A model generated the notes under the pieces. The model saw nothing but the letters and a program-made list of their open reading frames with translations, had not been told where the DNA came from and did no database searches. From NCBI GenBank assembly GCA_965217775.1, contig CBDCJH010000002.1:4576001-4640000 (forward strand): a DNA stretch of 64,000 nt, in the 5' to 3' direction. This DNA comes from Acidobacteriota bacterium. GTDB taxonomy: Bacteria > Acidobacteriota > UBA6911 > RPQK01 > JAJDTT01. Shown piece after piece: positions 934 through 22,381 of this stretch. Position 1 is the first letter of the stretch. Each line of letters starts with the position of its first letter. The translations under genes were made by a program, and so were the position numbers.

Positions 934-2549
934 TCTTTCCTTTTTCCTTTTTCCTTTTTCCTCGTTCCCCTCTCACCCCATCCCCCTCCTCCGGGGGTCT
1001 CGATCCGGACGGCCTGCCCGGCCGTGAGCTGGAGAGACACCTTGCCGGCGAGGTTCCTGCGACGGCCCCGGTCCACCAGGTAATTCCGGCCCTTCTTCCC
1101 GGTCTCTCCTCCGTTGAGTCCGTAGGGAGGGTTGACCCGCCGCTCCGACAGGATGGTCGTGGTGCAATCGGTCAAGGCCTCCAGGGTCCGGACGATTCCA
1201 TCCCCGCCTCGATATCTGCCCTTGGCGCCAGACCCGATTCTCAATCGGTACTCCCGAACCCGAAGCGGGAAATCGTACTCCAGGGCTTCGATGGGCGTGT
1301 TCAGGGAGTTGGTCATATGCGTGTGCACGCCGCTGGTACCGGGGCCGGACGGGCTGGCCCCCATGCCACCCCCGATGGTCTCGTAGTAGGAAAAGGGCTT
1401 GCCCGTGTCGGGGTGGACCCCGCCGATGGAGATGTTGTTCATGGTGCCGCTGCTGGCGGCCGGGATCCGGTCGGGCAGGGCTTGGGCCAGGGCCCGGAGC
1501 AGAACGTCCACGATCCGCTGGGAGGTCTCCACGTTGCCGCCGGCCGTCGCCGCCGGAAACCGGGCATCCACCACGCTTCCCTGCGGCGTGGAGACGCGGA
1601 CCGAGCGCATCAGCCCGGCGCTGGCGGGAGCATAGTCGGGAGCCAGGCAGCGGAGGACGTAATAGACGGCGGACCGGGTGACGGCGCGGACGGCGTTGAG
1701 GCAACCGGGTATCTGGGGTGCCGACCCCGCAAAATCGATCTTCATGGAATTCCTGGTGACCCGGATGCTGACACGAATCGGGACCGGCTCCGATCCCTTC
1801 CCGGGGTCGGCCTCATCCAACAGGTCCTCGGCCGTGTAGCGTCCGTCCGGGATCCGGCGAATGGTCTGCCGCATGATCTTCGCCGAATAGTCCTGCAGAG
1901 CCCGGCAGTACCTTTCCATCTCGGCTCTCCCGTTCTTTGCGACCAGCGCCCGCAGCCGCTTGTCGCCGACTCTCAGCGACCCCACCTGCGCGGCCAGATC
2001 CCCTTCCCGCTCCAGGGGGGTGCGGACGTTGCTGAGGAGGAGGCGGAGCAGGTCGACGTTCAATCGGCCCCGCCGGTAGAGCTTGGACGGCGGAACCCGG
2101 ATACCCTCTTGGAAGACGTCCCGGCTCAAGGGCATGGATCCGGGGGACATTCCCCCCACGTCCGCGTGATGGGCGCGACCGGCCACATAGAAGACGGGGC
2201 GGGCGAACCTGTCCGAAGGTTCGAACACGGGCGCCACCATGGTGAGATCGGGCAGGTGCGTTCCCCCGGCGAAGGGGTCGTTGAGGATCACCACGTCGCC
2301 CGGCTGCAGGGGCTCATGGGCGAGAGCCGCCTGGACCGACATGGGCATGGAGCCCAGATGGACCGGCATGTGGTCCCCCATGGCCACGAGCTGCGCCTTC
2401 GAGTCGAAGAGCGCACAGGAATAGTCTCGACGTTCCCGGACGTTGGAAGAATAGGCCGTGCGGTGGAGCACCGTCCCCATCTCCTCGGGGACCGAGGTCA
2501 GAAGATGCCGGTAGACCTCGAGTCTAACGGGATGGATACGTTTTGCCAC
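930..2549 (-). CDS. Hydantoinase B / 5-oxoprolinase family protein
   Basis: RTAYSSNVRERRDYSCALFD, HMPVHLGSM, NDPFAGGTHLPD, TPGGGGWG motifs; the ORF-track extension to 2768 is REP sequence, so GTG 2549 chosen as start. Confidence 0.9.
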   Translation of the reverse strand: MAKRIHPVRLEVYRHLLTSVPEEMGTVLHRTAYSSNVRERRDYSCALFDSKAQLVAMGDHMPVHLGSMPMSVQAALAHEPLQPGDVVILNDPFAGGTHLPDLTMVAPVFEPSDRFARPVFYVAGRAHHADVGGMSPGSMPLSRDVFQEGIRVPPSKLYRRGRLNVDLLRLLLSNVRTPLEREGDLAAQVGSLRVGDKRLRALVAKNGRAEMERYCRALQDYSAKIMRQTIRRIPDGRYTAEDLLDEADPGKGSEPVPIRVSIRVTRNSMKIDFAGSAPQIPGCLNAVRAVTRSAVYYVLRCLAPDYAPASAGLMRSVRVSTPQGSVVDARFPAATAGGNVETSQRIVDVLLRALAQALPDRIPAASSGTMNNISIGGVHPDTGKPFSYYETIGGGMGASPSGPGTSGVHTHMTNSLNTPIEALEYDFPLRVREYRLRIGSGAKGRYRGGDGIVRTLEALTDCTTTILSERRVNPPYGLNGGETGKKGRNYLVDRGRRRNLAGKVSLQLTAGQAVRIETPGGGGWGERGTRKKEKGKRKE

Positions 2550-2571
2550 GGCAGCAAAGATAGCAGAGAAA

Positions 2572-2784
2572 GAGGAGCGGCGGTTGGAGCGGCGGTTGGA
2601 GCGGCGGTTGGAGCGGCGGTTTCCAGCCGCCGAACTCCCAAGGAAACAAGGGGGCAAGAGTGGAGCGGCGGTTTCTAGCCGCCGAACTCCCAAGGAAACA
2701 AGGGGACAAGAGTGGAGGGGTGAATGGAAGACGGGGCGACTGGAAATCGCCCCTCCTGTGGGCGACAAGGATGTCGCCCCTCCT
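2572..2784. repeat. REP-like palindrome cluster with tandem GGAGCGGCGGTT 12-mers
   Basis: GGAGCGGCGGTTTCCAGCCGCC, GGGCGACTGGAAATCGCCCCTCCT and GGGCGACAAGGATGTCGCCCCTCCT hairpins. Confidence 0.85.
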
Positions 2785-2795
2785 GGGAGACCGGC

Positions 2796-2804
2796 TGTTA
2801 TAAT
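2796..2804 (+). promoter_or_regulatory. Extended -10 promoter (TGTTATAAT) for the ubiA-pil operon
   Basis: Perfect TGnTATAAT 11 nt before the ATG at 2816. Confidence 0.55.
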
Positions 2805-2815
2805 CGCGCGCTCTC

Positions 2816-3670
2816 ATGCGACGACTCGTGCTCACGCTGCAGATGATCAAGTTCGAGCACACCGTCTTCGCCCTGCCTTTTGCTTTTCTGGGAGCCCTTC
2901 TGGCCCAGCGCGGGTTGCCCGGGGGCGAGACCTGTATCTGGATCGTGGGGGCCATGGTGGGGGCGAGAAGCGCGGCCATGGCCTTCAATCGGCTGGTGGA
3001 CCGGCGCCAGGACCGGCTCAATCCCCGAACCGCCGGGCGGGAGCTTCCAAGGGAGCTGCTGAAACCCGGTTTCGTCATCGGCTTCATTCTGGCATCCGCC
3101 GGGCTCTTCTTCTTCTCGGCCTGGAGGTTGAATCCGCTCGCCCTGCTGCTGTCGCCGCCGGCCCTGGCCATCGTCCTGCTCTACAGCTATACGAAGAGGT
3201 TCACCTCGCTGTCCCATCTGTTCCTGGGACTCTCCCTGGCCATCGCGCCGGTCGGGGGTTGGGTGGCGGTGCGGGCAGAACTGTCCCTGGACCCGTTCTA
3301 CCTGGCGGCGGCGGTTCTGCTCTGGGTGGCCGGCTTCGACATCATCTATTCCTGCCAGGACACGGAATTCGACCGCCGCATGGGCCTGTACTCGATCCCC
3401 GGCCGCTTGGGAGTGGCCGCGGCCCTGAAGATCTCGGCGCTGCTGCACGCCGGGATGGTGGCCGTCCTGGGCTACGTTTTTCTCTCCTTCGATCTGGGCC
3501 TGTTGAGTTGGACCGGCCTGGTTCTGGTGACGGCCGCCCTGATCTACGAACATCGAATCGTCAGTCCTTCCGACCTGAGCCGGATCAACGCCGCGTTTTT
3601 TGCGGTCAACGGCGTTATCAGTCTAGGGCTGCTTCTGTTCGTAGGTCTGGATCTATGGCTGTTCCGGTAG
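2816..3670 (+). CDS. ubiA: UbiA-family 4-hydroxybenzoate polyprenyltransferase (MqnP-like)
   Basis: IKFEHTVFALPFA, AMAFNRLVDR..D..NPRT, YSYTKRFT, GFDIIYSCQD motifs; multi-TM. Confidence 0.9.
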   Translation: MRRLVLTLQMIKFEHTVFALPFAFLGALLAQRGLPGGETCIWIVGAMVGARSAAMAFNRLVDRRQDRLNPRTAGRELPRELLKPGFVIGFILASAGLFFFSAWRLNPLALLLSPPALAIVLLYSYTKRFTSLSHLFLGLSLAIAPVGGWVAVRAELSLDPFYLAAAVLLWVAGFDIIYSCQDTEFDRRMGLYSIPGRLGVAAALKISALLHAGMVAVLGYVFLSFDLGLLSWTGLVLVTAALIYEHRIVSPSDLSRINAAFFAVNGVISLGLLLFVGLDLWLFR

Positions 3671-4920
3671 ACGAATCTCCGACCCTGGCATTGGACCTCT
3701 CTGCCCGGGCCCGGCCGGGAGAAACGTCTCTCTCGCCGGAAGGGCGGGAGCCGGTGGTCCGCATGGTGGACCTCATCGTCTTCGACGCCATCGGCAAGAG
3801 AGCCAGCGATATTCACCTGGAGACCTACGACGGAGAGTTCCGGATCCGCTATCGGATCGACGGGGTCCTCTATCCGGTCGCCGCGCCCCCCCTGGCCCTT
3901 CGGGATGCCCTGATCTCCCGAGTCAAGATCCTGGGCGATCTGGACATCGGCGAACGGCGGCTACCACAGGACGGCCGAATCCGGATGAAGGTGCCGCAGG
4001 CCGGAGCGGACCGGGAGATCGATCTCCGCGTCTCCTCCCTTCCCACCATATTCGGAGAAAAGCTGGTGTTGAGGATCCTGGACCGGAAGCACCTCCCGCG
4101 GAGCCTGTCCGAACTCGGGATGGAGGAGGGCTCCCTCGAGGGGATGAGGAAAGCCCTGCGGAGACCTCATGGAATCGTGCTGGCCACCGGCCCCACCGGC
4201 AGCGGGAAGACCAGCACCCTCTACACCTGCCTGTCCCGGCTCAACCACCCCGGAATGAACATCAACACCGTGGAGGACCCGGTGGAGTTCAACCTCCCGG
4301 GGATCAACCAGGTCCAGACCAAGGACCCGGTGGGTCTGGGCTTCGCCACGGCGCTCCGGGCACTGCTGCGCCAAGACCCGGACATCCTCATGGTGGGGGA
4401 GATCCGGGACCGGGAAACCGCGGAGATCGCCATTCGCGCCGCCATCACCGGACACCTGGTGTTGAGCACCCTGCATACGAACGACGCCGCGTCGACGGTG
4501 GGCCGGCTGCTGGACATGGGGATTCCTCCGTTCCTCATCGCCAATTCGGTGAACCTGGTGTGTGCCCAACGGCTGGTGAGGAGGCTGTGCGGGGAATGCA
4601 AGGAGCCGAACCGGTCCCCGATATCGATCCTGGAACCGGGCGGAACCGAGACCGGACCGGCCCTCGAGATCTCCCGCTTCGACGCCCGGGGTTGCCCCGC
4701 CTGTCACGGCACAGGCTATCGCGGGCGGATCGGACTGTTCGAGACCATGGAGGTGACCGAAACCATCCGGCAACTGATCCTCCAGGGCGCCGACGCCACC
4801 GAGATCCGGAAACAGGCGGTCAGCGAGGGGATGATCACCCTGCGGGACAGCGGACTGGCGAAGATTCGCTCCGGCGTCAGCACCGTGGAGGAGGTGCTGA
4901 AGGCGACGCACCTCGCTTGA
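3655..4920 (+). CDS. pilB: PilB/GspE-family assembly ATPase, N-terminally short
   Basis: ASDIHLE, RRLPQDGR, Walker A GPTGSGKT, LRQDPDILMVGEIRD, tetracysteine motif; start uncertain. Confidence 0.88.
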   Translation: MAVPVDESPTLALDLSARARPGETSLSPEGREPVVRMVDLIVFDAIGKRASDIHLETYDGEFRIRYRIDGVLYPVAAPPLALRDALISRVKILGDLDIGERRLPQDGRIRMKVPQAGADREIDLRVSSLPTIFGEKLVLRILDRKHLPRSLSELGMEEGSLEGMRKALRRPHGIVLATGPTGSGKTSTLYTCLSRLNHPGMNINTVEDPVEFNLPGINQVQTKDPVGLGFATALRALLRQDPDILMVGEIRDRETAEIAIRAAITGHLVLSTLHTNDAASTVGRLLDMGIPPFLIANSVNLVCAQRLVRRLCGECKEPNRSPISILEPGGTETGPALEISRFDARGCPACHGTGYRGRIGLFETMEVTETIRQLILQGADATEIRKQAVSEGMITLRDSGLAKIRSGVSTVEEVLKATHLA

Positions 4921-4931
4921 ACCGGTGAAAC

Positions 4932-6020
4932 ATGCAAGTCGATCAGACGCATCCCACGGGACAGATCCTGAACCTGTTGCGGCTGGCCCACGACTCCGGC
5001 GCCAGCGACCTGCATCTCATTCCCGATTCCGTACCCTGCATGCGCGTCCACGGCCGGCTGGTGGCCGCGAACCATCTCCGGCTGAACCTGGAAGAAGCCC
5101 GGCACCTGGCCTACGGCATCATGTCCGACCGGCAGAGGGCCCGCTTCGAGCGTCTCCGGGAGATCGACTTCAGCTTCGAGGTGGAGGGACTGTCCCGATT
5201 CCGCGCCAACGTCTTCACCCGCCGCGGGAAGCCGGCGGCCGTCGTGCGTCTGATTCCGCTTCAGGTCGAACGCCTGGAGGAGTTGAGCCTGCCGGCGGTG
5301 GTGGCGGGTCTGGCCGTCCGGCCCCATGGCCTGATCCTGGTGGCCGGCTCCTCCGGCAGCGGCAAATCGACCACGCTGGCGGCTCTCATCGACCGGATCA
5401 ATCGAACCCAGGCCAAGCACATCATCACCATCGAGGATCCCATCGAGTTCGTGCACCAAAACCACAAGAGCGTCGTCAGCCAGAGGGAGGTACCGGGGGA
5501 TTCCCCCTCCTTTGCGTCGGCGCTCCGCATGGCCCTGCGCCAGGACCCCGACGTGGTCCTGGTGGGGGAGATGAGGGATTCCGAGACCATCGAGACCACC
5601 CTCCGGCTGGCCGAAACGGGGCACCTGACCTTTTCGACCCTCCACACGCGATCGGCCCCCGACACCATCGGGAGAATACTGGACATGTTCCCGGCCGATC
5701 AGCAGGGACGGATCCAGTCCCTCCTCTCCTCGGTCCTGGAGGGAATCGTCTGTCAGGCCCTGATGCCGTGCCGGAAGGAGCCGGGACGCGCCGTGGCCGC
5801 GGAAGTCCTGATTCCCAACCCGGCCATTCGGAACCTGATCCGTGAGCACAAGCTCCACCAGATCCGCTCGGCCATGCAGACGGGCCAAGCCGGAAGCGGA
5901 ATGTGCACGCTGAATCAGAGTTTGGCCAAGCTGTTCCACGCCGGCCGGATCTCCTACGAAACCTGCCTGGAGGTCTCGCCGGACGCTGCCGATCTGCGGC
6001 GGTGCCTGGAGCGGCGGTAG
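4932..6020 (+). CDS. pilT: Type IV pilus retraction ATPase
   Basis: ASDLHL, GSSGSGKSTT, TIEDPIEF, LRQDPDVVLVGEMRD, AIRNLIRE motif. Confidence 0.93.
   Translation: MQVDQTHPTGQILNLLRLAHDSGASDLHLIPDSVPCMRVHGRLVAANHLRLNLEEARHLAYGIMSDRQRARFERLREIDFSFEVEGLSRFRANVFTRRGKPAAVVRLIPLQVERLEELSLPAVVAGLAVRPHGLILVAGSSGSGKSTTLAALIDRINRTQAKHIITIEDPIEFVHQNHKSVVSQREVPGDSPSFASALRMALRQDPDVVLVGEMRDSETIETTLRLAETGHLTFSTLHTRSAPDTIGRILDMFPADQQGRIQSLLSSVLEGIVCQALMPCRKEPGRAVAAEVLIPNPAIRNLIREHKLHQIRSAMQTGQAGSGMCTLNQSLAKLFHAGRISYETCLEVSPDAADLRRCLERR
5871..6018 (+). repeat. Direct repeat copy 1 (pilT 3' end)
   Basis: Near-identical to 10186..10332. Confidence 0.95.
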
Positions 6021-6175
6021 GAAGGTTCGGGTCGAGTCCCAACACAGGCGGTTCGATGGGCATGGATTAACGGGCGTGGATCACTACTTGTACTGCAAAA
6101 TGGCACTGAAGAGTCCGCCGGTTGCGCATTGCGGGAACGGCCTGGACCTCCAACGGTGCGATTCAACGGCAGTGG

Positions 6176-8803
6176 TCAACAAGACTTGGAAGCACTCGTT
6201 CCCATCCTCTTCCGAATACGGTCGCGGATATCCGTAGCGACCTCAAGCACTTCCACCGGCGCGCGAACCTTCTCCCCGGCATGCTGACGCAGAGCAACGA
6301 CGAGGGGCGCCATGGCATCAGATTTCGCCTTGTCGGCGGTCATTATCTCAACAAGTTCATGCGCTCGCGCGCCGGTTGCAATCAAGTTTGGCACAACGCG
6401 TAGCATGGCGTGCATTGCAACTTCGTCGCAGGGGGTGAAAGCAGCATATGCGGAGATGAAAGCGTCCATGGCAGCTCGACGTCTTTTCTGGACCATTCGC
6501 GCCATAGTCCGTACACACATTGCATGCAACTTAAACCAATTTATGCCGTCTCCCTCCAAAGTACAGAATTCTCGTTCGAGTTCTTCGCAATCCTGGAGAG
6601 CTTCTTCTGCGCGACCGGTCTCGGCCAAACGCATACCCCTGAGACTCAGTGCGATGGCGACGTGGGTCCGGATACCCGACGGGCCGTCATCGAAACGGTC
6701 GAGCACCTCGCCGTACGCGGCAATTTCTCCCCCACGCTCACCCAGTTGTCCCAGCCTAGCTCCTTTGCCGATCAAAGCAACGGCCACCGACCTCTGGAGT
6801 TCAATATCATCACAGTCGGCGAAACACTCGATGACCTCGTCATACACAGCAATCGAACCCGCCGGATTGCCGCACCGCACAAGTGCATTTCCTTTTTTTA
6901 GCGATACAGAAGCCACCGTTACTCGGACTTCAATCTCACCACTGTCGCCGAGTCGTTCGACTGCTTCGTCGTAGGCTGCGATCGCCGTCTCGAAATCGCC
7001 GAGTTTTTCCTGTGCGGATCCCTTCTCGACCAACGCCGCAACGATGGCCTCTTGAAATGGCGGCCGCTCAATGTTGCCAAAGCGCCGGATCACATCCTCA
7101 CAGGTTGCAATCGCCGCCCCATATTCGCCGATTTCGAAGCGTGCTCTTGCCCCGATGACCAATGCTTCAGCGAGTCGCGCCAAACGCGTAACGTTGCCGC
7201 TGTCGCCAAATCGGTCGACCATCTCCGTGCAAACGGCAATCACGCCACGATAATCCGCCAAGTTGTGAAGCGCGCAGGCCTTCATATGCAACAGGTAATC
7301 GATGATCCGTTCCTGAGAACGATCCGGACCCGTCTCCAGCGAGGCGGCAAACCCGTCAACGATCTCGACGACCCTCTCGAATGACTTCTCCGCGAATGCC
7401 GTATTGATCTCTTTCTCGATACACGATTCAGCCATGCTCCAATAACGCGCTGTAGCTTGGTCCGATACCATTTGGATGGCATCCCATTTCGTTCCGGAGG
7501 CACCATCCTCACCGGGAGGCCGGTCCGAGAGCGCCCGCGCGAATCCTTTGCGAAAGGCTGCAGATTCCGCCACCTCTGAAGTGAGACGAGCGGACATCTC
7601 ATGCAGTTCGCCGACCCCGTAGAACGCCACCATGAAATGGATCAGATCCCGTACGATGACAACGTCATCGCGCTCGCGCCGCAACTTGAAGTAAATGCTG
7701 TAGAGACGCTCTGCGGCGGCGTACCGGAGCTTCCTGCCGCGACCTTCCCGGGTCACCACGCCGCGATTGACCAATCGCCCGAGCAAGGCCGATACGGTAC
7801 GGATGTCCATTCGGGCCCTCGCTGCGACCTCGCCGGCGCTCGACGGTCTCCAGAGATCGAGCACAGCTAGATAGACGCGGCGTTCGGTCTTCGCCAAGGC
7901 GTTCAGATGGCCACGGAAATACTCGGTATGGTCGTCGATCAGCGTAACCATATCTTCCATGAGCTGACGGAGAGAGCGATGTCGACTGAATCCAGCTACG
8001 ATGACCAGCAGACGGGGACTACCTCCGGTCAGAATCTCAAGGGGCCTGACCTCTCGGCCGCTCACAGTGTCGCCACTGACGACCTGCCACAAGCGACGGC
8101 ATTCCTCGGTCCTCAAAGGTTCGAGATCAATGATCCTGAAAAGCTCGAAGAACGGATGGCTTGCATCGTTCAGACCTCGAAAATGACTGGTGGCGGAACC
8201 CAACAGTATGATTTGTGGTTCGGACTGCAGAACGCCTCGAAGCTTCCAGCCAAAATCACGGTCCACATCCTGTGTTAGTGACTGCAGGTTCTCGACCATG
8301 AGAACGAGCCTTCTGTCCAGGCGGTCCGCCGCCTCCAGGACCGCGGCCCGGGCAGCCTCCCCCAACGTCGCCTCACGCCAGCGGCCGGCCAGTACCGCGT
8401 GGGTTTGGCGCAGTTGCCACGCGAGTTCGGAATCACTCGAGGAGATCTCTCTCGCCAAGTGGAACAGCGTCTCCAGCCAGAAATCGGTCATATTGAAGAT
8501 TTCCTGGCTTTCTTCCATGAATCGGACCGGAAACAGCCGATTGGACAGCGCGTCATTCGTCCGCATCTCGGCGGCGGTGCGAGCCAGAAGCATGGTTTTT
8601 CCGCGACCCCGAGGTCCGACGACCAGAACGTGCTGGCAGGACGCCGATTGGATGTTTCCGCGCAAGACCTCGAGCAGGATGCCAAGTTCGGGGTCCCGGA
8701 CAACGAATTGCGCAATCAATTCCTGATCGGATTGGAACGTCCCTGGATTGAATTTTCGGATCGTCGTACCGGCTGATCGGATCATCGAGCCTACTCCGGA
8801 CAT
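6176..8803 (-). CDS. P-loop (STAND/AAA-like) ATPase + winged HTH + TPR-like repeat protein
   Basis: Walker A GPRGRGKT, atypical Walker B LVLMVEN, wHTH-like SAGEVAARARMDIRTVSALLGRLV, several helical repeats of the form A.AYDEV..RF. Confidence 0.8.
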   Translation of the reverse strand: MSGVGSMIRSAGTTIRKFNPGTFQSDQELIAQFVVRDPELGILLEVLRGNIQSASCQHVLVVGPRGRGKTMLLARTAAEMRTNDALSNRLFPVRFMEESQEIFNMTDFWLETLFHLAREISSSDSELAWQLRQTHAVLAGRWREATLGEAARAAVLEAADRLDRRLVLMVENLQSLTQDVDRDFGWKLRGVLQSEPQIILLGSATSHFRGLNDASHPFFELFRIIDLEPLRTEECRRLWQVVSGDTVSGREVRPLEILTGGSPRLLVIVAGFSRHRSLRQLMEDMVTLIDDHTEYFRGHLNALAKTERRVYLAVLDLWRPSSAGEVAARARMDIRTVSALLGRLVNRGVVTREGRGRKLRYAAAERLYSIYFKLRRERDDVVIVRDLIHFMVAFYGVGELHEMSARLTSEVAESAAFRKGFARALSDRPPGEDGASGTKWDAIQMVSDQATARYWSMAESCIEKEINTAFAEKSFERVVEIVDGFAASLETGPDRSQERIIDYLLHMKACALHNLADYRGVIAVCTEMVDRFGDSGNVTRLARLAEALVIGARARFEIGEYGAAIATCEDVIRRFGNIERPPFQEAIVAALVEKGSAQEKLGDFETAIAAYDEAVERLGDSGEIEVRVTVASVSLKKGNALVRCGNPAGSIAVYDEVIECFADCDDIELQRSVAVALIGKGARLGQLGERGGEIAAYGEVLDRFDDGPSGIRTHVAIALSLRGMRLAETGRAEEALQDCEELEREFCTLEGDGINWFKLHAMCVRTMARMVQKRRRAAMDAFISAYAAFTPCDEVAMHAMLRVVPNLIATGARAHELVEIMTADKAKSDAMAPLVVALRQHAGEKVRAPVEVLEVATDIRDRIRKRMGTSASKSC

Positions 8804-10026
8804 TCTTGATCCAACCGGCGGCCTTCAAGCGGAGTATGGTGATCGCGGAAGCGAGCCGACCACCAGTCCATCAGCAAGCGGGACGGAAAGCGAAATCCAT
8901 CGTTACCGGCTTCAAGGTAGCCATCGTGCACCAAGACTTCGAGCACGTCCGAGATTCTCCCGGATACATTGTCGACTACAGCGGAATAGATTCGTGCAAG
9001 GTGTCTCCTCGCAGACGGTGAAAACACCCGTTGGGTCGACGCCTCGGCGAGAATCTCCATGGCGATCGAGTAGCTCGGATCGTCCAATCCCTCCTTGAGG
9101 CGTGTCTCGTAATGCACAAGATCGTTCTGTCCCGTAGGGCCGAGAAGGTCGGTGCGATAGACTTCGCCGACGTCATTTTCGGTGACCTGTTCCCGTCCAT
9201 GGATTGTGGCGAAATCCCGGACGCGCGCGAAGAAGGATTGGACGTGGTGGGGAATCCCGATGCCAAGCGCCTCGTATACGGCACCTGGCACACCGTCCTC
9301 GAATCGCAATCCAGAACTTTCTGCGAGGCGCCGGAAACATGCGACACTGGTTTCACGGTCCCACGGGCCTAACCGAACGGGATCCAGATGGTTGATGCGA
9401 TCAGGGATGCCGAGCGTCGTTACGAGTGGACCGAGCCCGATGCTGCCGGACACGATGACGACCAGGGACCCGACCTCGACTCTTTGAAGCTCGCCCCGCA
9501 GCCAACTGAGGAACTCATCGACCCGTCGGGGCCCATCTTCATGCCGAAGCATGCGTTTGAGAAAGATTGGTAGTTCGTCAATCACAAGAAGCACCGGCTT
9601 GTCGTGGGAGGCGCATGCATGAAGCAACTCTCCTCCATGGCGCCGCCAACTTCCGGCATCCAGTCCGGCACGGATCTTGACGCGAAAATCCAGGGCGCCG
9701 ATTTCTTCCAGGCCTCCGGTCACCCAGCGTTTCATCGTCGTGGCGAAACGTGATGAAATCGCGCGAACCGGATGCACCGCCCGTGCAATATCGGCGATCG
9801 CGTCCTCCGGACAGGTTGCTCCCTCTACATCGGTGAAAAGGAAGATCCAACCTTCGGCTTCGAGCCGCCGACCCAGTTCTCTGGCAATGCTAGTCTTTCC
9901 CATACGCCGCTGTCCCGTCAGCAACACATGGTTACCATCGCAGACTCGGGCTTTCAGTACCCGCAACTCGGATTCTCGATCGAAGAAATCGTCCCCGCTT
10001 ACCCAGCGGCCCGTCGATAACCTCAT
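8791..10026 (-). CDS. Archaeal-ATPase-like (STAND-type) P-loop ATPase
   Basis: FFDRESEL, Walker A GQRRMGKTS, Walker B LLVIDE; stop overlaps the start of the downstream TPR-ATPase by 13 nt. Confidence 0.8.
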   Translation of the reverse strand: MRLSTGRWVSGDDFFDRESELRVLKARVCDGNHVLLTGQRRMGKTSIARELGRRLEAEGWIFLFTDVEGATCPEDAIADIARAVHPVRAISSRFATTMKRWVTGGLEEIGALDFRVKIRAGLDAGSWRRHGGELLHACASHDKPVLLVIDELPIFLKRMLRHEDGPRRVDEFLSWLRGELQRVEVGSLVVIVSGSIGLGPLVTTLGIPDRINHLDPVRLGPWDRETSVACFRRLAESSGLRFEDGVPGAVYEALGIGIPHHVQSFFARVRDFATIHGREQVTENDVGEVYRTDLLGPTGQNDLVHYETRLKEGLDDPSYSIAMEILAEASTQRVFSPSARRHLARIYSAVVDNVSGRISDVLEVLVHDGYLEAGNDGFRFPSRLLMDWWSARFRDHHTPLEGRRLDQECPE

Positions 10027-10185
10027 TCCTTCGTTCCCCTTCAGCGAACACATTAGAACATTCAACAAATCTGTCGTCAACAAATTTGTTGAATTGATTT
10101 GGGTTGCCCAAGGGTCGCATCCATGGGCTCGGGTGCTTTTGGCCTCCTCGAATTTTCCAGCTTCGCGAGCTGCCCCCTCCGTTCC

Positions 10186-10332
10186 GCCATGCAGACCGGC
10201 CAGTCCGGAAGCGGATGTGCACGCTGAATCAGAGCTTGGCCAAGCTGTTCCACGCCGGCCGGATCTCCTACGAAACCTGCCTGGAGGTCTCGCCGGACGC
10301 TGCCGATCTGCGGCGGTGCCTGGAGCGGCGGT
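10186..10332 (+). pseudogene. Duplicated pilT 3' fragment (direct repeat copy 2) running into a REP
   Basis: Matches 5871..6018 with a few substitutions and a 1-bp deletion (GCGGAATG vs GCGGATG). Confidence 0.9.
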
Positions 10333-10433
10333 TTCCTAACCGCCGGACTCCAGAGTAAGCGCAGGGCAAAGAAGAAAACCCGCGGAGGAGAATCGGGGAT
10401 TAGCGGAATGGGCGACTGGAAATCGCCCCTCCT
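10322..10433. repeat. REP pair (REPIN-like)
   Basis: GGAGCGGCGGTTTCCTAACCGCC ... GGGCGACTGGAAATCGCCCCTCCT. Confidence 0.8.
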
Positions 10434-10437
10434 GTTC

Positions 10438-11571
10438 ATGTTTTTCCAACCCCAAACGTTACCAGTATCAGTGGCCATTCCAGACGGGCGGGGGTTTCGT
10501 CCCCGCCGCATTGCACAGGCTCGAATCGGAAGGATCTCGACCCGGCAACTGTCTCTGTTCACGCGGCAGGTGTCGGTGATGTTGGGGGCGGGCGTCTCGT
10601 TGGTTTCGGCGCTGCAGAACCTGGCCCAACAGGAGGAGAACCGCGCCCTGGGGTCCACTCTGCGCCAGATCCGTTACGACGTGGAGTCCGGGTCGACTCT
10701 GGCCGCAGCACTGGAACGCCACCCCCGTGTCTTCGACCCTCTTTTCGTCAACATGGTCCGGGCGGGGGAGACGGGTGGATTTCTGGATACGGTGTTCAAG
10801 CGCCTCACCCGGTTCCTGGAAAAGAGGCTCCAGTGGCGCAAGGCGGTGCTCTCGGCCTCTCTCTATCCGTCGGTCGTCATCGTGACTTCGTTCCTGGTTC
10901 TGGGCGTCATCCTGGTCTGGGTGATCCCGGTCTTCGCGTCCCTCTTCGCCAATCTGGACGTCCCCCTCCCGTTGCCGACGCGGATGGTCATGGGAGCCAG
11001 CGGGTTCCTGAGCCGGTGGGGACTGCCCCTGAGCCTGGGGGCGGGGGCGGCGGCATTGTCGGGTGGATTCTACGTCCGCACGGCCAAGGGACGGATGTGG
11101 ATGGATCGATTGATCCTGGCGGCCCCGCTGGTGGGCTCGGTGACGACCCAACTCCTGACGGCCCGTTTCGCACGGACCCTTTCCACGCTCCTTTCCAGCG
11201 GAGTCCCCATCCTGGAAGCGATGGACCTGACGGCGCGAGCCCTGGGGAATGTCCGGTTTCAAGAGACGGTGCTGGCGCTCCGGCGTGAGGTCGAGTCGGG
11301 GAGCGCCTTGGCGGAACCATTCCGGCACAGCGGCCTCTTTCCCCAGATGGCGTCGGAGATCATCCGGATCGGGGAATTGACGGGCACATTGGACGACATG
11401 CTCCTGAAACTGGCCGTCTACTACGAGGAGGAGGCGGACACCAGCATCAACCGTTTTCTGGCGCTGCTGGAACCCATGATGATGTTGATCTTGGGCATCG
11501 TCGTCGGCGGCATGGTCCTGTCCATGTACCTGCCGATTTTCAGTCTGATGGGACGTTTGTCCCAGATGTAG
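10438..11571 (+). CDS. pilC: Type IV pilus platform protein (PilC/GspF)
   Basis: FTRQVSVMLGAGV, VNMVRAGETGG, ASLYP, FARTLSTLLSSGVPILEA, LLEP motifs; start uncertain. Confidence 0.9.
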   Translation: MFFQPQTLPVSVAIPDGRGFRPRRIAQARIGRISTRQLSLFTRQVSVMLGAGVSLVSALQNLAQQEENRALGSTLRQIRYDVESGSTLAAALERHPRVFDPLFVNMVRAGETGGFLDTVFKRLTRFLEKRLQWRKAVLSASLYPSVVIVTSFLVLGVILVWVIPVFASLFANLDVPLPLPTRMVMGASGFLSRWGLPLSLGAGAAALSGGFYVRTAKGRMWMDRLILAAPLVGSVTTQLLTARFARTLSTLLSSGVPILEAMDLTARALGNVRFQETVLALRREVESGSALAEPFRHSGLFPQMASEIIRIGELTGTLDDMLLKLAVYYEEEADTSINRFLALLEPMMMLILGIVVGGMVLSMYLPIFSLMGRLSQM

Positions 11572-11739
11572 GCCCGGAATGGGAAATTGTTCTCGTGGAT
11601 ACGCGGGCGGGGACGTTTCATACTATGCAAGGATGAAGCAGCAAGCGAGGATGAAATAACGATGCTCCATCGAACCAGGATCTTTCCGGTGTCCGACTGC
11701 GGAGACCGGATCCGAAAGGAGTCCGGCAGTTCCGACTCG

Positions 11740-12228
11740 ATGCCCTCTCACTCCCCCCGGAACGGAGCTGCCGGATTCTCTCTGATCGAACTCATGATCG
11801 TGGTGGCCGTCATCGGGATCATCTCCATTCTGGCGGTTCCCAATTTCATGAGCGCCCGGCTCTTCGCCAATGAGACCTCGGCCATCGCCTCCCTGCGGGT
11901 CACCGTCACCAGCGAGATCACGTATGCCTCCACCGTGGGAAACGGATCCTTTGCGAGCACGGAGGAACTCGTGGCGCAGGGACTCATCGACTCGGCTCTG
12001 GGGTCCGGCACCAAGGACGGCTACAACCTGACCCTGACGGCGGACGGTACCAGCGGATTCACGGTCACCGCCGTTCCCATCACGGTAGGATCGACCGGAC
12101 AGCGGGGATTCTACGCCGATCAGACCGGCGTGATCCGATACAGCGGCGACGGATCGGCTCCGACCGCGGCCAGTCCCGCATTGGGCACCGAAACCCCCGC
12201 AACAGAGGAAGAAACCGACTCAGATTAG
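11740..12228 (+). CDS. Type IV pilin-like protein
   Basis: Class III signal G|FSLIELMIVVAVIGIISILAVPNF; alternative start 11662. Confidence 0.85.
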   Translation: MPSHSPRNGAAGFSLIELMIVVAVIGIISILAVPNFMSARLFANETSAIASLRVTVTSEITYASTVGNGSFASTEELVAQGLIDSALGSGTKDGYNLTLTADGTSGFTVTAVPITVGSTGQRGFYADQTGVIRYSGDGSAPTAASPALGTETPATEEETDSD

Positions 12229-12277: not shown

Positions 12278-13644
12278 CATAAGAGCTAACCTGATTGCCT
12301 GACCACTGTCTTGTATAGTGTGGGCATGAGCCAAACGGTAGTAAAAGCGGCTACGAATGAGGACTGGAACCTGCTGGTGTCGTTTTTCCCAGCCAATTGG
12401 CTGGATCTGGCGGCCTCGACCGGAGCCCTGAAGGGCCTGCGCAAGGACAAGTCGCCGGAAAACCTGCTACGGACCCTGCTGATCCATCTCGGCTGCGGGC
12501 ATTCCTTGCGCGAAACCGTGGTGCGGGCCCGGCAAGCGAGCCTGGCCGATTTGTCCGACGTGGCCCTGCTCAAGCGGCTGCGGAAATCCCGCGAATGGCT
12601 CTACGCCCTCTGCCTGGAACTGTTCCGGGAGCATGGGATCGCGGTTTCCAAGAACGCCGGCTTCCAAGTGCGGGCGTTCGATGCGACGACCGTGCGCGAG
12701 CCCGGCCGGACCGGGTCGGTGTGGCGCCTTCACTACAGCGTCAACCTGCCTTCGCTCGGCTGCGATTTCTTCAAGCTGACCGCGACGCAGGGGCGCGGCA
12801 CCGGCGAGTCGTTCACGCAGTTCCCGATCCGGTCGGGCGATTACGTGCTGGCCGACCGCGGCTACTCGACTGCGGTCGGGATTCAGCACGTCGCGGCTGG
12901 CGGAGGGTACGTGACGGTGCGCGTGAACACCGGATCGCTGCTGCTGGAAACCGAGGCTGGCCAAGCGTTCGACCTGCTCGCAGCCGTGGAAACGCTGTCG
13001 CGACCGGGGCCTGTCGGTAGTTGGAGAGTCCGCACCGTGGCCCGGGCCGGGCCCCCCCTGGCGGGCCGGATCTGTGCGGTGCGCAAGACCGACGAAGCCA
13101 TCGAAGTCGCGCATGCCAAGATCCGCCGAACGGCTCAGCGCAAGGGCAAGCAGGTCCGGCCCGAAACCCTGCGGTTCGCGCGCTTCGTCATCGTTTTCAC
13201 AACCTACCCAGTGGAGAAATTCCCTGCGGCCGAGGTGCTGGAGTGGTACCGCCTGCGCTGGCAAGTCGAACTGGTCTTCAAGCGCTTCAAGTCCCTGGCG
13301 CAGCTCGGGCACCTGCCGAAGCACGATGAGGCAAGCGCCCAGGCCTGGTTGTACGGCAAGCTGCTGGTGGCGCTGCTGGTCGAAAAGGTGGTCCGCCATG
13401 CACGGACCATTTCTCCCTGGGGATACGACGTCGCGACCGGACAGGACTCCCAGCCCGTGGCGTGACTTCAAATTCGCATTGAACCAAGTCACGCGAGCCC
13501 GCGAGCCATCGAGCCGGCGTATTCCCTAAAACGCATGGTCGCGGAATGGAGCGAAATCTCGGCGTCCCTGGTAGAACCTCCACGGAGAAGGTCCGATCAC
13601 GTTGACAGCCACTTTTCGGGCCATTATTCAAGTTAGCTCTTATG
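12278..13644 (+). mobile_element. IS4-family insertion sequence, 1367 bp
   Basis: Terminal IRs CATAAGAGCTAACCTGA / CATAAGAGCTAACTTGA (16 of 17 match); 11-bp target duplication GGACGGAGTCC at 12267-12277 and 13645-13655. Confidence 0.93.
12326..13465 (+). CDS. IS4-family DDE transposase
   Basis: AFDATT, LADRGY, YRLRWQVELVFKRFKS (YREK motif). Confidence 0.92.
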   Translation: MSQTVVKAATNEDWNLLVSFFPANWLDLAASTGALKGLRKDKSPENLLRTLLIHLGCGHSLRETVVRARQASLADLSDVALLKRLRKSREWLYALCLELFREHGIAVSKNAGFQVRAFDATTVREPGRTGSVWRLHYSVNLPSLGCDFFKLTATQGRGTGESFTQFPIRSGDYVLADRGYSTAVGIQHVAAGGGYVTVRVNTGSLLLETEAGQAFDLLAAVETLSRPGPVGSWRVRTVARAGPPLAGRICAVRKTDEAIEVAHAKIRRTAQRKGKQVRPETLRFARFVIVFTTYPVEKFPAAEVLEWYRLRWQVELVFKRFKSLAQLGHLPKHDEASAQAWLYGKLLVALLVEKVVRHARTISPWGYDVATGQDSQPVA

Positions 13645-13785: not shown

Positions 13786-18003
<4,218 letters not shown>

Positions 18004-18061
18004 AGCTTTCCTCCCAAACAGTGTCAGCGAACGCGCACCGGGACGCTCAGGCGTCCAGGGG

Positions 18062-22381
<4,320 letters not shown>

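Follow-up and report, generated by a model that had tools for sequence, protein, structure and literature searches.

A horizontally mobile pair of NTPase genes between pilT and pilC of an Acidobacteriota bacterium carries its own operator and is a candidate STAND/ORC-like sensor system

Between the pilus genes pilT and pilC of an Acidobacteriota bacterium (assembly GCA_965217775.1, contig CBDCJH010000002.1), a 4.16-kb insert carries two genes for P-loop NTPases, here called SMALL (411 aa) and BIG (875 aa). The insert lies in a 64,000-nt stretch, the window, that spans contig positions 4,576,001 to 4,640,000 and to which coordinates refer unless a locus is named. Relatives of SMALL and BIG occur as a strict pair across phyla, and both genes in the window are under purifying selection. 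The chief new finding is a conserved operator that accompanies the cassette; also new are the paralogy of the two proteins, an invariant hhhhEN motif in BIG, the strict pairing, the variation in repeats, and the purifying selection on both genes. We favor, with moderate confidence, the reading that the pair is an uncharacterized, autoregulated, horizontally mobile STAND/ORC-like sensor pair working in defense or conflict.

Strict pairing and a co-traveling operator

A word-indexed search returned 3,253 matches to BIG and 1,616 to SMALL, and an exhaustive search returned 2,020 SMALL representatives at E ≤ 0.001 and 249 representative clusters at E ≤ 1e-30. At 71% identity or more there are over 100 SMALL clusters, all 406–424 aa long save one of 472 aa. 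A relative is encoded in 219 stretches of species-representative genomes; locus counts rest on the 80 that were kept. In all 80 loci, BIG comes next after SMALL, in the same orientation and starting within ∼250 nt downstream, so that the co-occurrence of homologs as a pair, on which the original prediction hinged, holds throughout. The order is the same in four of four loci of distant paralogs in congeners. There is no third conserved gene; when the 1,159 open reading frames (ORFs) of the loci were clustered, the next neighbor cluster was present in six loci. A second BIG follows in tandem in L044, L053, L054, L073, and L083 (locus labels). A gammaproteobacterial locus, L005, has a second, divergent SMALL/BIG pair (17380–21074; 41% and 37% identity) on the opposite strand, ∼6 kb away.

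CAAC-N6-GTTG palindromes are located upstream of SMALL, 30–120 nt before the start codon, in almost every locus, and mostly form a double site, CAAC-N6-GTTGACAAC-N6-GTTG. At least one exact CAAC-N6-GTTG is present in 68 of 81 upstream regions, including 35 with two copies and 14 with three or four. Outside these regions, the loci contain 40 copies in 1.58 Mb (0.004 per 160 nt), and the enrichment upstream of SMALL is several-hundred-fold over this background. A scan of the whole genome (6.4 Mb) located the double site (≤1 mismatch) at two places only: at the cassette and upstream of a solo BIG-type paralog, ∼100 nt from its annotated TTG start (7219). The paralog is a protein of 551 aa with AAA_16 and a winged helix-turn-helix (wHTH) domain, without repeats and without a SMALL (L095, G000:C2:2394000-2408000, 2200–7349). 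This paralog adjoins three tandem tyrosine recombinase genes, an arrangement like that of "recombinase in trio" elements. Four congener loci of 5.7–6.0 kb have distant pairs (SMALL' 38–43% and BIG' 36–45% identical). In each, exact operator copies are directly upstream of SMALL' and nowhere else, and in the three of four with two copies, these are spaced 15 nt. Two further operator pairs were seen away from SMALL. One, in L017 (∼18498), is upstream of the gene for a 388-aa FlgD_ig-domain protein whose relatives directly follow BIG in L021 and L081; the other, in L035 (∼2486), is at the end of another ORF. They could mark regulon members or cassette remnants.

The operator coincides with a putative promoter. 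A TTGACA box lies inside the central GTTGACAAC, and TTGACN-N17-TNNNNT fits 63 of 81 upstream regions, with TATATT, TTAAAT, and TATAAT being the commonest downstream hexamers. The site in the window conforms to this arrangement (table 1); a consensus promoter scan listed no site at the SMALL promoter because its second hexamer has no A at position 2. No terminator-like site was found in 5900–10450. In autorepression, the operator usually lies over the −35 box and spacer, as it does here. BIG is favored as the operator-binding protein because its wHTH helix is basic and invariant, with a core kept in paralogs, whereas the corresponding helix in the winged helix of SMALL is variable among relatives; the ORC-like winged helix of SMALL is a possible alternative. 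DNA binding via the wHTH, which the original prediction had offered as a potential output, gains support from the strongly conserved operator traveling with the cassette. The invariant 29-bp operator provides a direct handle for footprinting and reporter assays.

Architecture and paralogy of SMALL and BIG

SMALL has an AAA+ core, a lid, and a C-terminal winged helix, the layout of the ORC/Cdc6-archaeal ATPase group, in which its closest solved relatives are found. It matches AAA_16 (E = 4.9e-10). Its score for ATPase_2 (PF01637) is 19.5 bits versus a cut-off of 33.2; many homologs of 71–77% identity carry a precomputed PF01637 label. The best matches in profile searches are 2fna_A and 2qen_A (E = 5.8e-10 and 3.1e-9). 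For the AlphaFold2 (AF2) model (predicted local distance difference test [pLDDT] of 93.2), Foldseek ranks SSO1545 (2fna; E = 4e-12), PAB2304 (2qen; E = 1.6e-11), archaeal ORC1/Cdc6, and then RuvB; fold matches include 2fna_A, 2qen, 1w5t, 2qby, and 2v1u, with DNA-bound ORC1/Cdc6 forms among them. In an alignment of 70 relatives, down to 29% identity, the Walker A (GQRRMGKTS) and Walker B (LLVIDE) motifs that identify SMALL as the P-loop ATPase first proposed are conserved and of the active type, and SMALL is predicted to be hydrolysis-competent. The length of 411 aa assumes the ATG at 10026; the ORF is also open from a TTG (8791–10083, 430 aa).

BIG matches AAA_16 at residues 32–178 (E = 5.1e-10), a TrmB-like wHTH at residues 303–364, and a TPR region at residues 552–741, in agreement with the NTPase, wHTH, and TPR-like parts ascribed to it from the start. 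It has both elements that define a STAND P-loop NTPase, a Walker A and a Walker B, the latter deviant, and the STAND order of NTPase, helical domain, winged helix, and repeat sensor in one chain, with which AF2 secondary structure agrees. The AF2 model is of moderate quality (pLDDT of 74.9), falling below 50 at residues 206–300 and being good in the solenoid from ∼440 to 870. Foldseek matches are consensus TPR proteins, the STAND-TPR protein 6mfv_A, ORC1, and SAMD9; 6mfv_A is second-best and extends over 784 columns with low TM-scores (0.28 and 0.37).

The original prediction was right that the Walker B of BIG deviates, but the motif given there as a degenerate VENL is better read as hhhhEN. 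Residues E171 and N172 are invariant in the 30 relatives of the conservation alignment and, by hhalign, align with the Walker B Asp of SMALL and its catalytic Glu, respectively. The EN is also kept in the paralogs with 36–45% identity. From what is established for Walker B mutants, the hhhhEN motif leads us to predict that BIG binds ATP with poor or slow hydrolysis, as a switch would.

The wHTH of BIG is ArsR/TrmB-like (the match to HTH_metalloreg, E = 4.6e-5, is under cut-off). R329, R331, R335, S338, R343, and R347 are invariant in the recognition helix, and the SALLxRLxxRG core is kept in distant paralogs. This domain may have no more than the structural role that a winged helix plays in a STAND nucleotide-binding oligomerization domain, but its invariant basic helix and the co-traveling operator argue for DNA binding.

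BLASTP between BIG and SMALL detected the P-loop alone (E = 0.46). With hhalign, residues 20–372 of BIG align with residues 10–402 of SMALL (probability 90.8, E = 1.2e-6) across the NTPase, lid, and winged helix. On this evidence from profile comparison, the two proteins are diverged paralogs of one NTPase-wHTH module. Prediction of a complex of BIG(1–440) and SMALL, which was run without controls, gave a score of 0.00, which carries no weight for or against an interaction.

The remainder of BIG is divided into a solenoid and a conserved C-terminal region. Of the TPR tail originally described, the repeats stand, with one unit at residues 589–616 passing the TPR_1 and TPR_2 cut-offs, but not the canonical period: it is 43 residues in 21 of 21 family members scanned, compared to 34 in TPRs. 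In the solenoid, pLDDT is mostly 77–96, with a dip to 58 at residues 491–500. The N-terminal 430 and last 130 residues are strongly conserved across the family, whereas the middle differs by whole repeats and homologs range in length from 756 to 1322 aa. Adjacent repeats are 93–98% identical in homologs P0118, P0103, P0112, and P0044 and just 32% identical in the BIG of the window. High identity between the repeats of one protein, as in these homologs, is a typical trait of NLR-like receptors in fungi and bacteria, and we suggest that the sensor part of BIG behaves like a DIVERSIFYING receptor. No Pfam family covers residues 746–875, and a protein atlas search with residues 740–875 yielded scores of ≤0.82, which are at noise level.

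Insertion, spread, and genomic neighborhood

As originally noted, two minus-strand genes oppose pilT and pilC. Their ORFs overlap by 13 nt, or are separated by a 5-nt gap if translation of BIG begins at the second Met, like that of P0003 (97% identical). The insertion into the pilus operon was likewise correctly recognized, with bounds (6021–10185) that nearly coincide with those found here (table 1), as was the lower GC of the cassette: 0.56–0.61 over 6001–10500, compared to 0.65–0.66 over 4001–6000 and 0.64 over 10501–11500. The site is empty in congeners G002, G003, G004, and G005, where pilT and pilC are 32–340 nt apart, and the cassette is at the same place in congener G001 and in locus L030.

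A 156-nt duplication brackets the insert in the genome of the window. The left copy forms the last 156 nt of pilT, whose C-terminus was changed by the insertion; its last 118 nt are 99% identical to 10215–10332, and the right copy continues into the native pilT tail and intergenic DNA. This right-hand duplicate of pilT is missing at the G001/L030 locus. The duplication may have arisen when a circle integrated by a single crossover, or when the locus recombined with an allele whose site was empty. The left junction (6018/6019) splits the middle of one copy (broken part, 6008–6018) of a dispersed REP-like palindrome of ∼30 nt, GGAGCGGCGG-TTTCCTAA-CCGCCGGACTCC, whose intact copy is at the other end. 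Loose-ended RNA contigs with unrelated flanks accumulate on this palindrome. The insert encodes no recombinase.

Between the window and L030, synonymous divergence (dS) is 0.31 for SMALL and 0.30 for BIG, comparable to that of the flanking genes (0.24 for pilT, 0.32 for pilC), and the cassette has therefore been inherited vertically since these genomes split. The ratio of nonsynonymous to synonymous divergence (dN/dS) is 0.21 for SMALL. For BIG, it is 0.31 overall, with values of 0.21 in the N-terminal module, 0.47 in the repeats, and 0.39 in the C-terminal region. SMALL and BIG are under purifying selection.

Over wider distances the distribution is patchy. SMALL was found in seven of 41 relatives searched, with G001 alone having an ortholog. 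Across the phylum, a search at E ≤ 1e-50 found it in 12 of 401 genomes, which belong to 8 of 228 genera. Proteins 61–89% identical to SMALL are encoded in metagenome-assembled genomes labeled Acidobacteriota, Latescibacterota, Binatia, Gemmatimonadota, Nitrospirales, Nitrospinaceae, Caldilineaceae, Gamma- and Alphaproteobacteria, and Thermodesulfobacteriota, and by our count the loci span at least 10 phyla. The GC of the cassette is more than 0.02 below that of its flanks in 48 of 76 loci and more than 0.02 above it in eight. Sequence comparisons thus identify the pair as a conserved, horizontally mobile unit that has spread across phyla, and it illustrates clearly how a gene cassette can move between phyla without its own recombinase.

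Neighbors were scanned as the nearest gene on each side (150 proteins, 77 loci). In 20 of the 77 loci, a nearest neighbor is a toxin-antitoxin, Abi, restriction-modification, PADLOC-candidate, or transposase/integrase/resolvase gene. Neighbors matched in Pfam are HicB (L009), AbiU2 (L019), AbiEi (L066), Uma2 (L069), PIN (L074), HigB (L058, L062), Transposase_31 (L025), a DDE transposase (L029), an rve integrase (L035), a resolvase with a methylase (L056), N6_Mtase (L042, L047), TacA with HipA (L049), SNF2/ResIII (L014), AAA_14-DUF4143 (L005), HIRAN (L011), and DUF433 (L036, L039, L041), which has an antitoxin link. PADLOC gave substantial matches among the neighbors in nine of 77 loci (PDC-S01, PDC-M03B, HmaA, PDC-S45, type I MTase in two, MTase II, AbiEi, and PDC-S03); its remaining neighbor matches reflect shared domains (PRTase, metallo-beta-lactamase, sigma-54 AAA, and adenosine deaminase). 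This defense and mobile context is suggestive of a defense role and no more.

The original prediction also connected the cassette to the pilus as a common phage receptor. That link came from position alone and does not extend to most other genomes, where the cassette is beside unrelated genes. Examined post hoc, the cassette adjoins DNA-uptake genes in three unrelated lineages: pilT/pilC in the window and L030, ComEC (Competence, DUF4131, and Lactamase_B) in L027 (7226–9751) and L031 (7099–9657), and a ComF-like gene (DZR_2 and PRTase) in L004 (9040–9795) and L061 (9038–9793). By a rough, uncomputed estimate, well under one such context would be expected by chance.

Nine sequencing runs each contain at least half of the sampled words of the cassette, and four RNA-library runs of one study, labeled "sponge metagenome", contain 14–21%. 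RNA-library contigs fall on both genes with 0–9 differences per piece, and two bridge the SMALL/BIG junction (X10 record 7, 8716–8896; X11 record 12, 8769–8922), which hints weakly at a single transcript for the operon. These data are contigs that give neither strand nor level, may include DNA carry-over, and are uninformative where they leave stretches uncovered.

The flanking plus-strand genes are pilB (2584–4920), pilT, pilC, and a pilin gene (11587–12228), with an insertion sequence (IS) transposase gene and then rpoC/rpoB downstream. The IS element, between the pilin gene and rpoC, spans 12311–13465 and encodes a DDE_Tnp_1 transposase (E = 2.1e-16).

Table 1. Features of the cassette and its surroundings, in window coordinates
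Feature	Position	Strand	Evidence
pilT (context)	4932..6020	+	T2SSE E 4.1e-44; 88–94% identical orthologs adjoin pilC in congeners
Left copy of 156-nt direct repeat (pilT 3' end)	5863..6018	+	Repeat search, empty-site alignment
Inserted segment (two genes and promoter region)	6019..10177		Junction blastn, empty-site alignment, GC drop
BIG, 875-aa NTPase-wHTH-repeat protein (candidate STAND/ORC-like sensor)	6176..8803	-	Pfam, alignment, AF2, Foldseek
BIG conserved C-terminal helical region, residues 746–875	6179..6568	-	Invariant P833, L834, A837, L838, G843, E844, R847, P849, E851, D858
BIG alpha-solenoid, 43-residue TPR-like repeats, ∼residues 440–745	6569..7486	-	TPR_1/TPR_2, period 43, whole-repeat indels
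BIG wHTH, residues 303–366, ArsR/TrmB-like, basic invariant recognition helix	7706..7897	-	TrmB E 1.7e-5 (303–364)
BIG deviant Walker B LVLMVEN, residues 166–172	8288..8308	-	E171, N172 invariant 30/30; hhalign register
BIG Walker A GPRGRGKT, residues 63–70	8594..8617	-	Nearly invariant in BIG alignment
SMALL, 411-aa AAA+ ATPase, archaeal-ATPase/ORC-Cdc6 type, C-terminal winged helix	8791..10026	-	Pfam, profiles, AF2 fold
SMALL winged-helix domain, ∼residues 337–393, HDGYL motif	8848..9018	-	AF2; D368, G369, Y370, L371 nearly invariant
SMALL Walker B LLVIDE, residues 146–151	9574..9591	-	D150 invariant, E151 nearly so, 70 sequences
SMALL Walker A GQRRMGKTS, residues 38–46	9889..9915	-	R40, G43, K44, S46 invariant, 70 sequences
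Putative promoter TTGACG (10080–10075), 17-nt spacer, TCTAAT (10057–10052), overlapping operator	10052..10080	-	Manual reading
Double palindromic operator CAACAAATTTGTTG-A-CGACAGATTTGTTG upstream of SMALL	10063..10091	-	Conserved motif, 29 bp
Right copy of 156-nt repeat (detached pilT 3' fragment, 1-nt deletion)	10178..10332	+	Junction blastn, repeat search, alignment
Dispersed REP-like imperfect palindrome, intact copy	10322..10351		Sequence; 46 matches in own genome
pilC (context)	10408..11571	+	T2SSF E 5.9e-64; orthologs in congeners

Related systems and possible function

The pair has no name in PADLOC, NCBIfam, or the PDB and is not described in the limited collection of literature searched, and the cassette retains the uncharacterized status originally given to it. 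Of the refuting conditions set with the original prediction, those that were checked did not overturn it, and its interpretation is partly supported. The best PADLOC match is mad8 (E = 2.6e-5), confined to the P-loop part of SMALL (residues 35–174) with no conserved neighbors, and no NCBIfam match is above cut-off. Membership in MADS was rejected on this basis, and membership in PDC-S01 and DS8 because scores are weak and partial.

PH0952 of Pyrococcus horikoshii (6mfv) and MalT are like BIG in having a P-loop NTPase, a helical region, a winged helix, and a long TPR-like solenoid, and share with it an N-terminal "FVVR..EL" motif and the AAA_16 match. BIG differs in having no separate DNA-binding or effector domain, in its hhhhEN Walker B, and in always following a paralogous ATPase gene; Pfam gave no match in BIG to the LuxR/GerE-type domain of MalT/LAL proteins, and its C-terminus is the helical region without a family. 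Avs/AVAST proteins also combine an NTPase with a large, variable TPR-like sensor and are horizontally mobile with a patchy distribution. According to PMC13581612, most Avs sensors are TPR-like repeats, and mutation or deletion of the effector domain abolished cell death in the families tested. BIG and SMALL have no effector domain. Avs are mostly single polypeptides, and no AVAST model of PADLOC is among the matches of either protein at E ≤ 1. BIG could fall within one of the 589 STAND clades of PMC13581612.

The likeness to certain Orc/CDC6 pairs concerns the logic of the system. As described in PMC10853773, an active Orc/CDC6 ATPase is operon-paired with a second Orc/CDC6 whose Walker A is intact and whose Walker B is disrupted, and such pairs in mobile neighborhoods are assigned to immunity against selfish elements. 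Compared by this description, SMALL and BIG follow the same logic, including the disrupted Walker B. The described operons have a KAP P-loop NTPase and often NACHT, pentapeptide-repeat, or TIR fusions; BIG has 43-residue repeats instead, no KAP NTPase is among the 150 nearest neighbors, and no third gene is conserved in the 80 loci. SMALL shares its AAA+ core, lid, and C-terminal winged helix with SSO1545 (2fna), PAB2304 (2qen), PF01637, and archaeal Orc1/Cdc6, but is 17–18% identical to SSO1545 and PAB2304, and the archaeal proteins either have no assigned function, going by entry titles, or are replication initiators.

We infer a role in immunity or defense, in which BIG would be a switch NTPase that holds ATP and, given its hhhhEN motif, hydrolyzes it poorly, with its variable 43-residue repeats as the ligand sensor and SMALL, of ORC/Cdc6/archaeal-ATPase fold, as a hydrolysis-competent common partner. 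One winged helix, more likely that of BIG, would autorepress the operon via the double operator over its own promoter. Binding of a foreign protein by the repeats would switch BIG, and BIG and SMALL would jointly act on DNA without a fused enzymatic effector, in conflict with phages or mobile DNA. If the pair is a defense system, it would represent STAND/NLR-like receptor signaling that proceeds without a fused enzymatic effector, via a paralogous ORC-like ATPase and DNA binding. The family is large, yet it is found almost wholly in uncultured lineages and is absent from phage and plasmid collections and from PADLOC, and it has therefore escaped screens that depend on model organisms. A more specific scenario, which we regard as unlikely, is that of an effector-less NLR-like pair in which hydrolysis-impaired BIG, once bound to an invader, leaves the operator and recruits SMALL to DNA, blocking replication or transcription of the invader or the cell, and which spreads among co-resident phyla as a unit of promoter, operator, and two genes without a recombinase, landing at repeated palindromes and, more often than expected, beside DNA-uptake genes. 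In this scenario, the siting beside pilT/pilC, ComEC, and ComF would be a hint that the module polices incoming DNA.

Several findings weigh against a sensor pair in defense. As first reported, no nuclease, TIR, or SIR2 domain is recognizable, and scans of both proteins with Pfam, PADLOC, and NCBIfam revealed no effector domain; no defense model of PADLOC or NCBIfam matched either protein above threshold. The assignment of BIG to STAND is itself strained by the poor modeling of its NTPase region (residues 206–300) and by STAND-specific Pfam scores under cut-off (nSTAND_NTPase5, E = 0.011, 16 bits vs. 34; NACHT, E = 0.012, 15.8 bits vs. 26.7), with just the broad AAA_16 passing. In 57 of 77 loci, nearest neighbors are just housekeeping or unannotated genes, and these counts come with no background rate for comparison; the null of 0.0153 in PMC13581612 refers to DefenseFinder systems within 5 kb and is not comparable with a nearest-neighbor count. 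No relatives were found in 50,697 phage records, 72,556 plasmids gave one match (26% identical), and a search of IMG/VR viral contigs with a single peptide pattern confirmed no relative. The evidence for expression is weak, in that RNA contigs cover parts of both genes and DNA carry-over is possible. Lastly, a conserved operator and a wHTH are equally expected of an ordinary transcription factor.

A rival reading is a transcription regulator of the MalT/LAL kind, responsive to ATP and a ligand, in which BIG senses a metabolite or peptide with its repeats, binds CAAC-N6-GTTG with its wHTH, and controls host genes with SMALL as a cofactor, and which has no role in defense. We consider this unlikely. 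The ArsR/TrmB-like wHTH of BIG, the overlap between operator and promoter, an overall architecture as in the MalT-type STAND-TPR protein 6mfv_A, the extra operator pairs in L017 and L035, and the predominance of housekeeping neighbors are all consistent with it. However, no target gene is conserved beside the pair in 80 loci, and the double operator in the genome of the window is confined to the cassette and the BIG-type paralog, so no regulon is visible. Patchy distribution, transfer across phyla at 61–79% identity, and insertion into an unrelated operon would be unusual for a regulator without cargo, and BIG has no LuxR/GerE or SARP DNA-binding domain. If the dyads were instead iteron-like repeats, the pair could be a selfish maintenance or replication module, with ORC/Cdc6-like initiators serving addiction or replication of the element and giving the host no benefit. 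The fold of SMALL is that of ORC1/Cdc6 initiators, including a heterodimer on origin DNA (2qby), dyads 15 nt apart are repeated beside the gene, the solo BIG-type paralog adjoins the tyrosine recombinase genes, and the insertion is at a dispersed REP-like palindrome. We consider such a module very unlikely. None of the genes typical of plasmids or phages, such as those for a recombinase, a relaxase, or partition, co-travels with the pair, and the searches of plasmids and phages did not find it there. The dyads overlap a TTGACA-N17-TANNNT promoter 30–120 nt from the start codon, which is an operator layout; the cassette is vertically inherited, with dS equal to that of its flanks, and is under purifying selection; and a long variable repeat sensor is unexpected in a replication initiator.

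Finally, the lower GC and the lack of a known function might indicate decaying, nonfunctional foreign DNA whose features arose by chance, an explanation that is almost certainly wrong: the reading frames are intact, dN/dS is 0.21–0.31 over a dS of 0.3, and there are thousands of homologs in strict synteny with an operator enriched several-hundred-fold.

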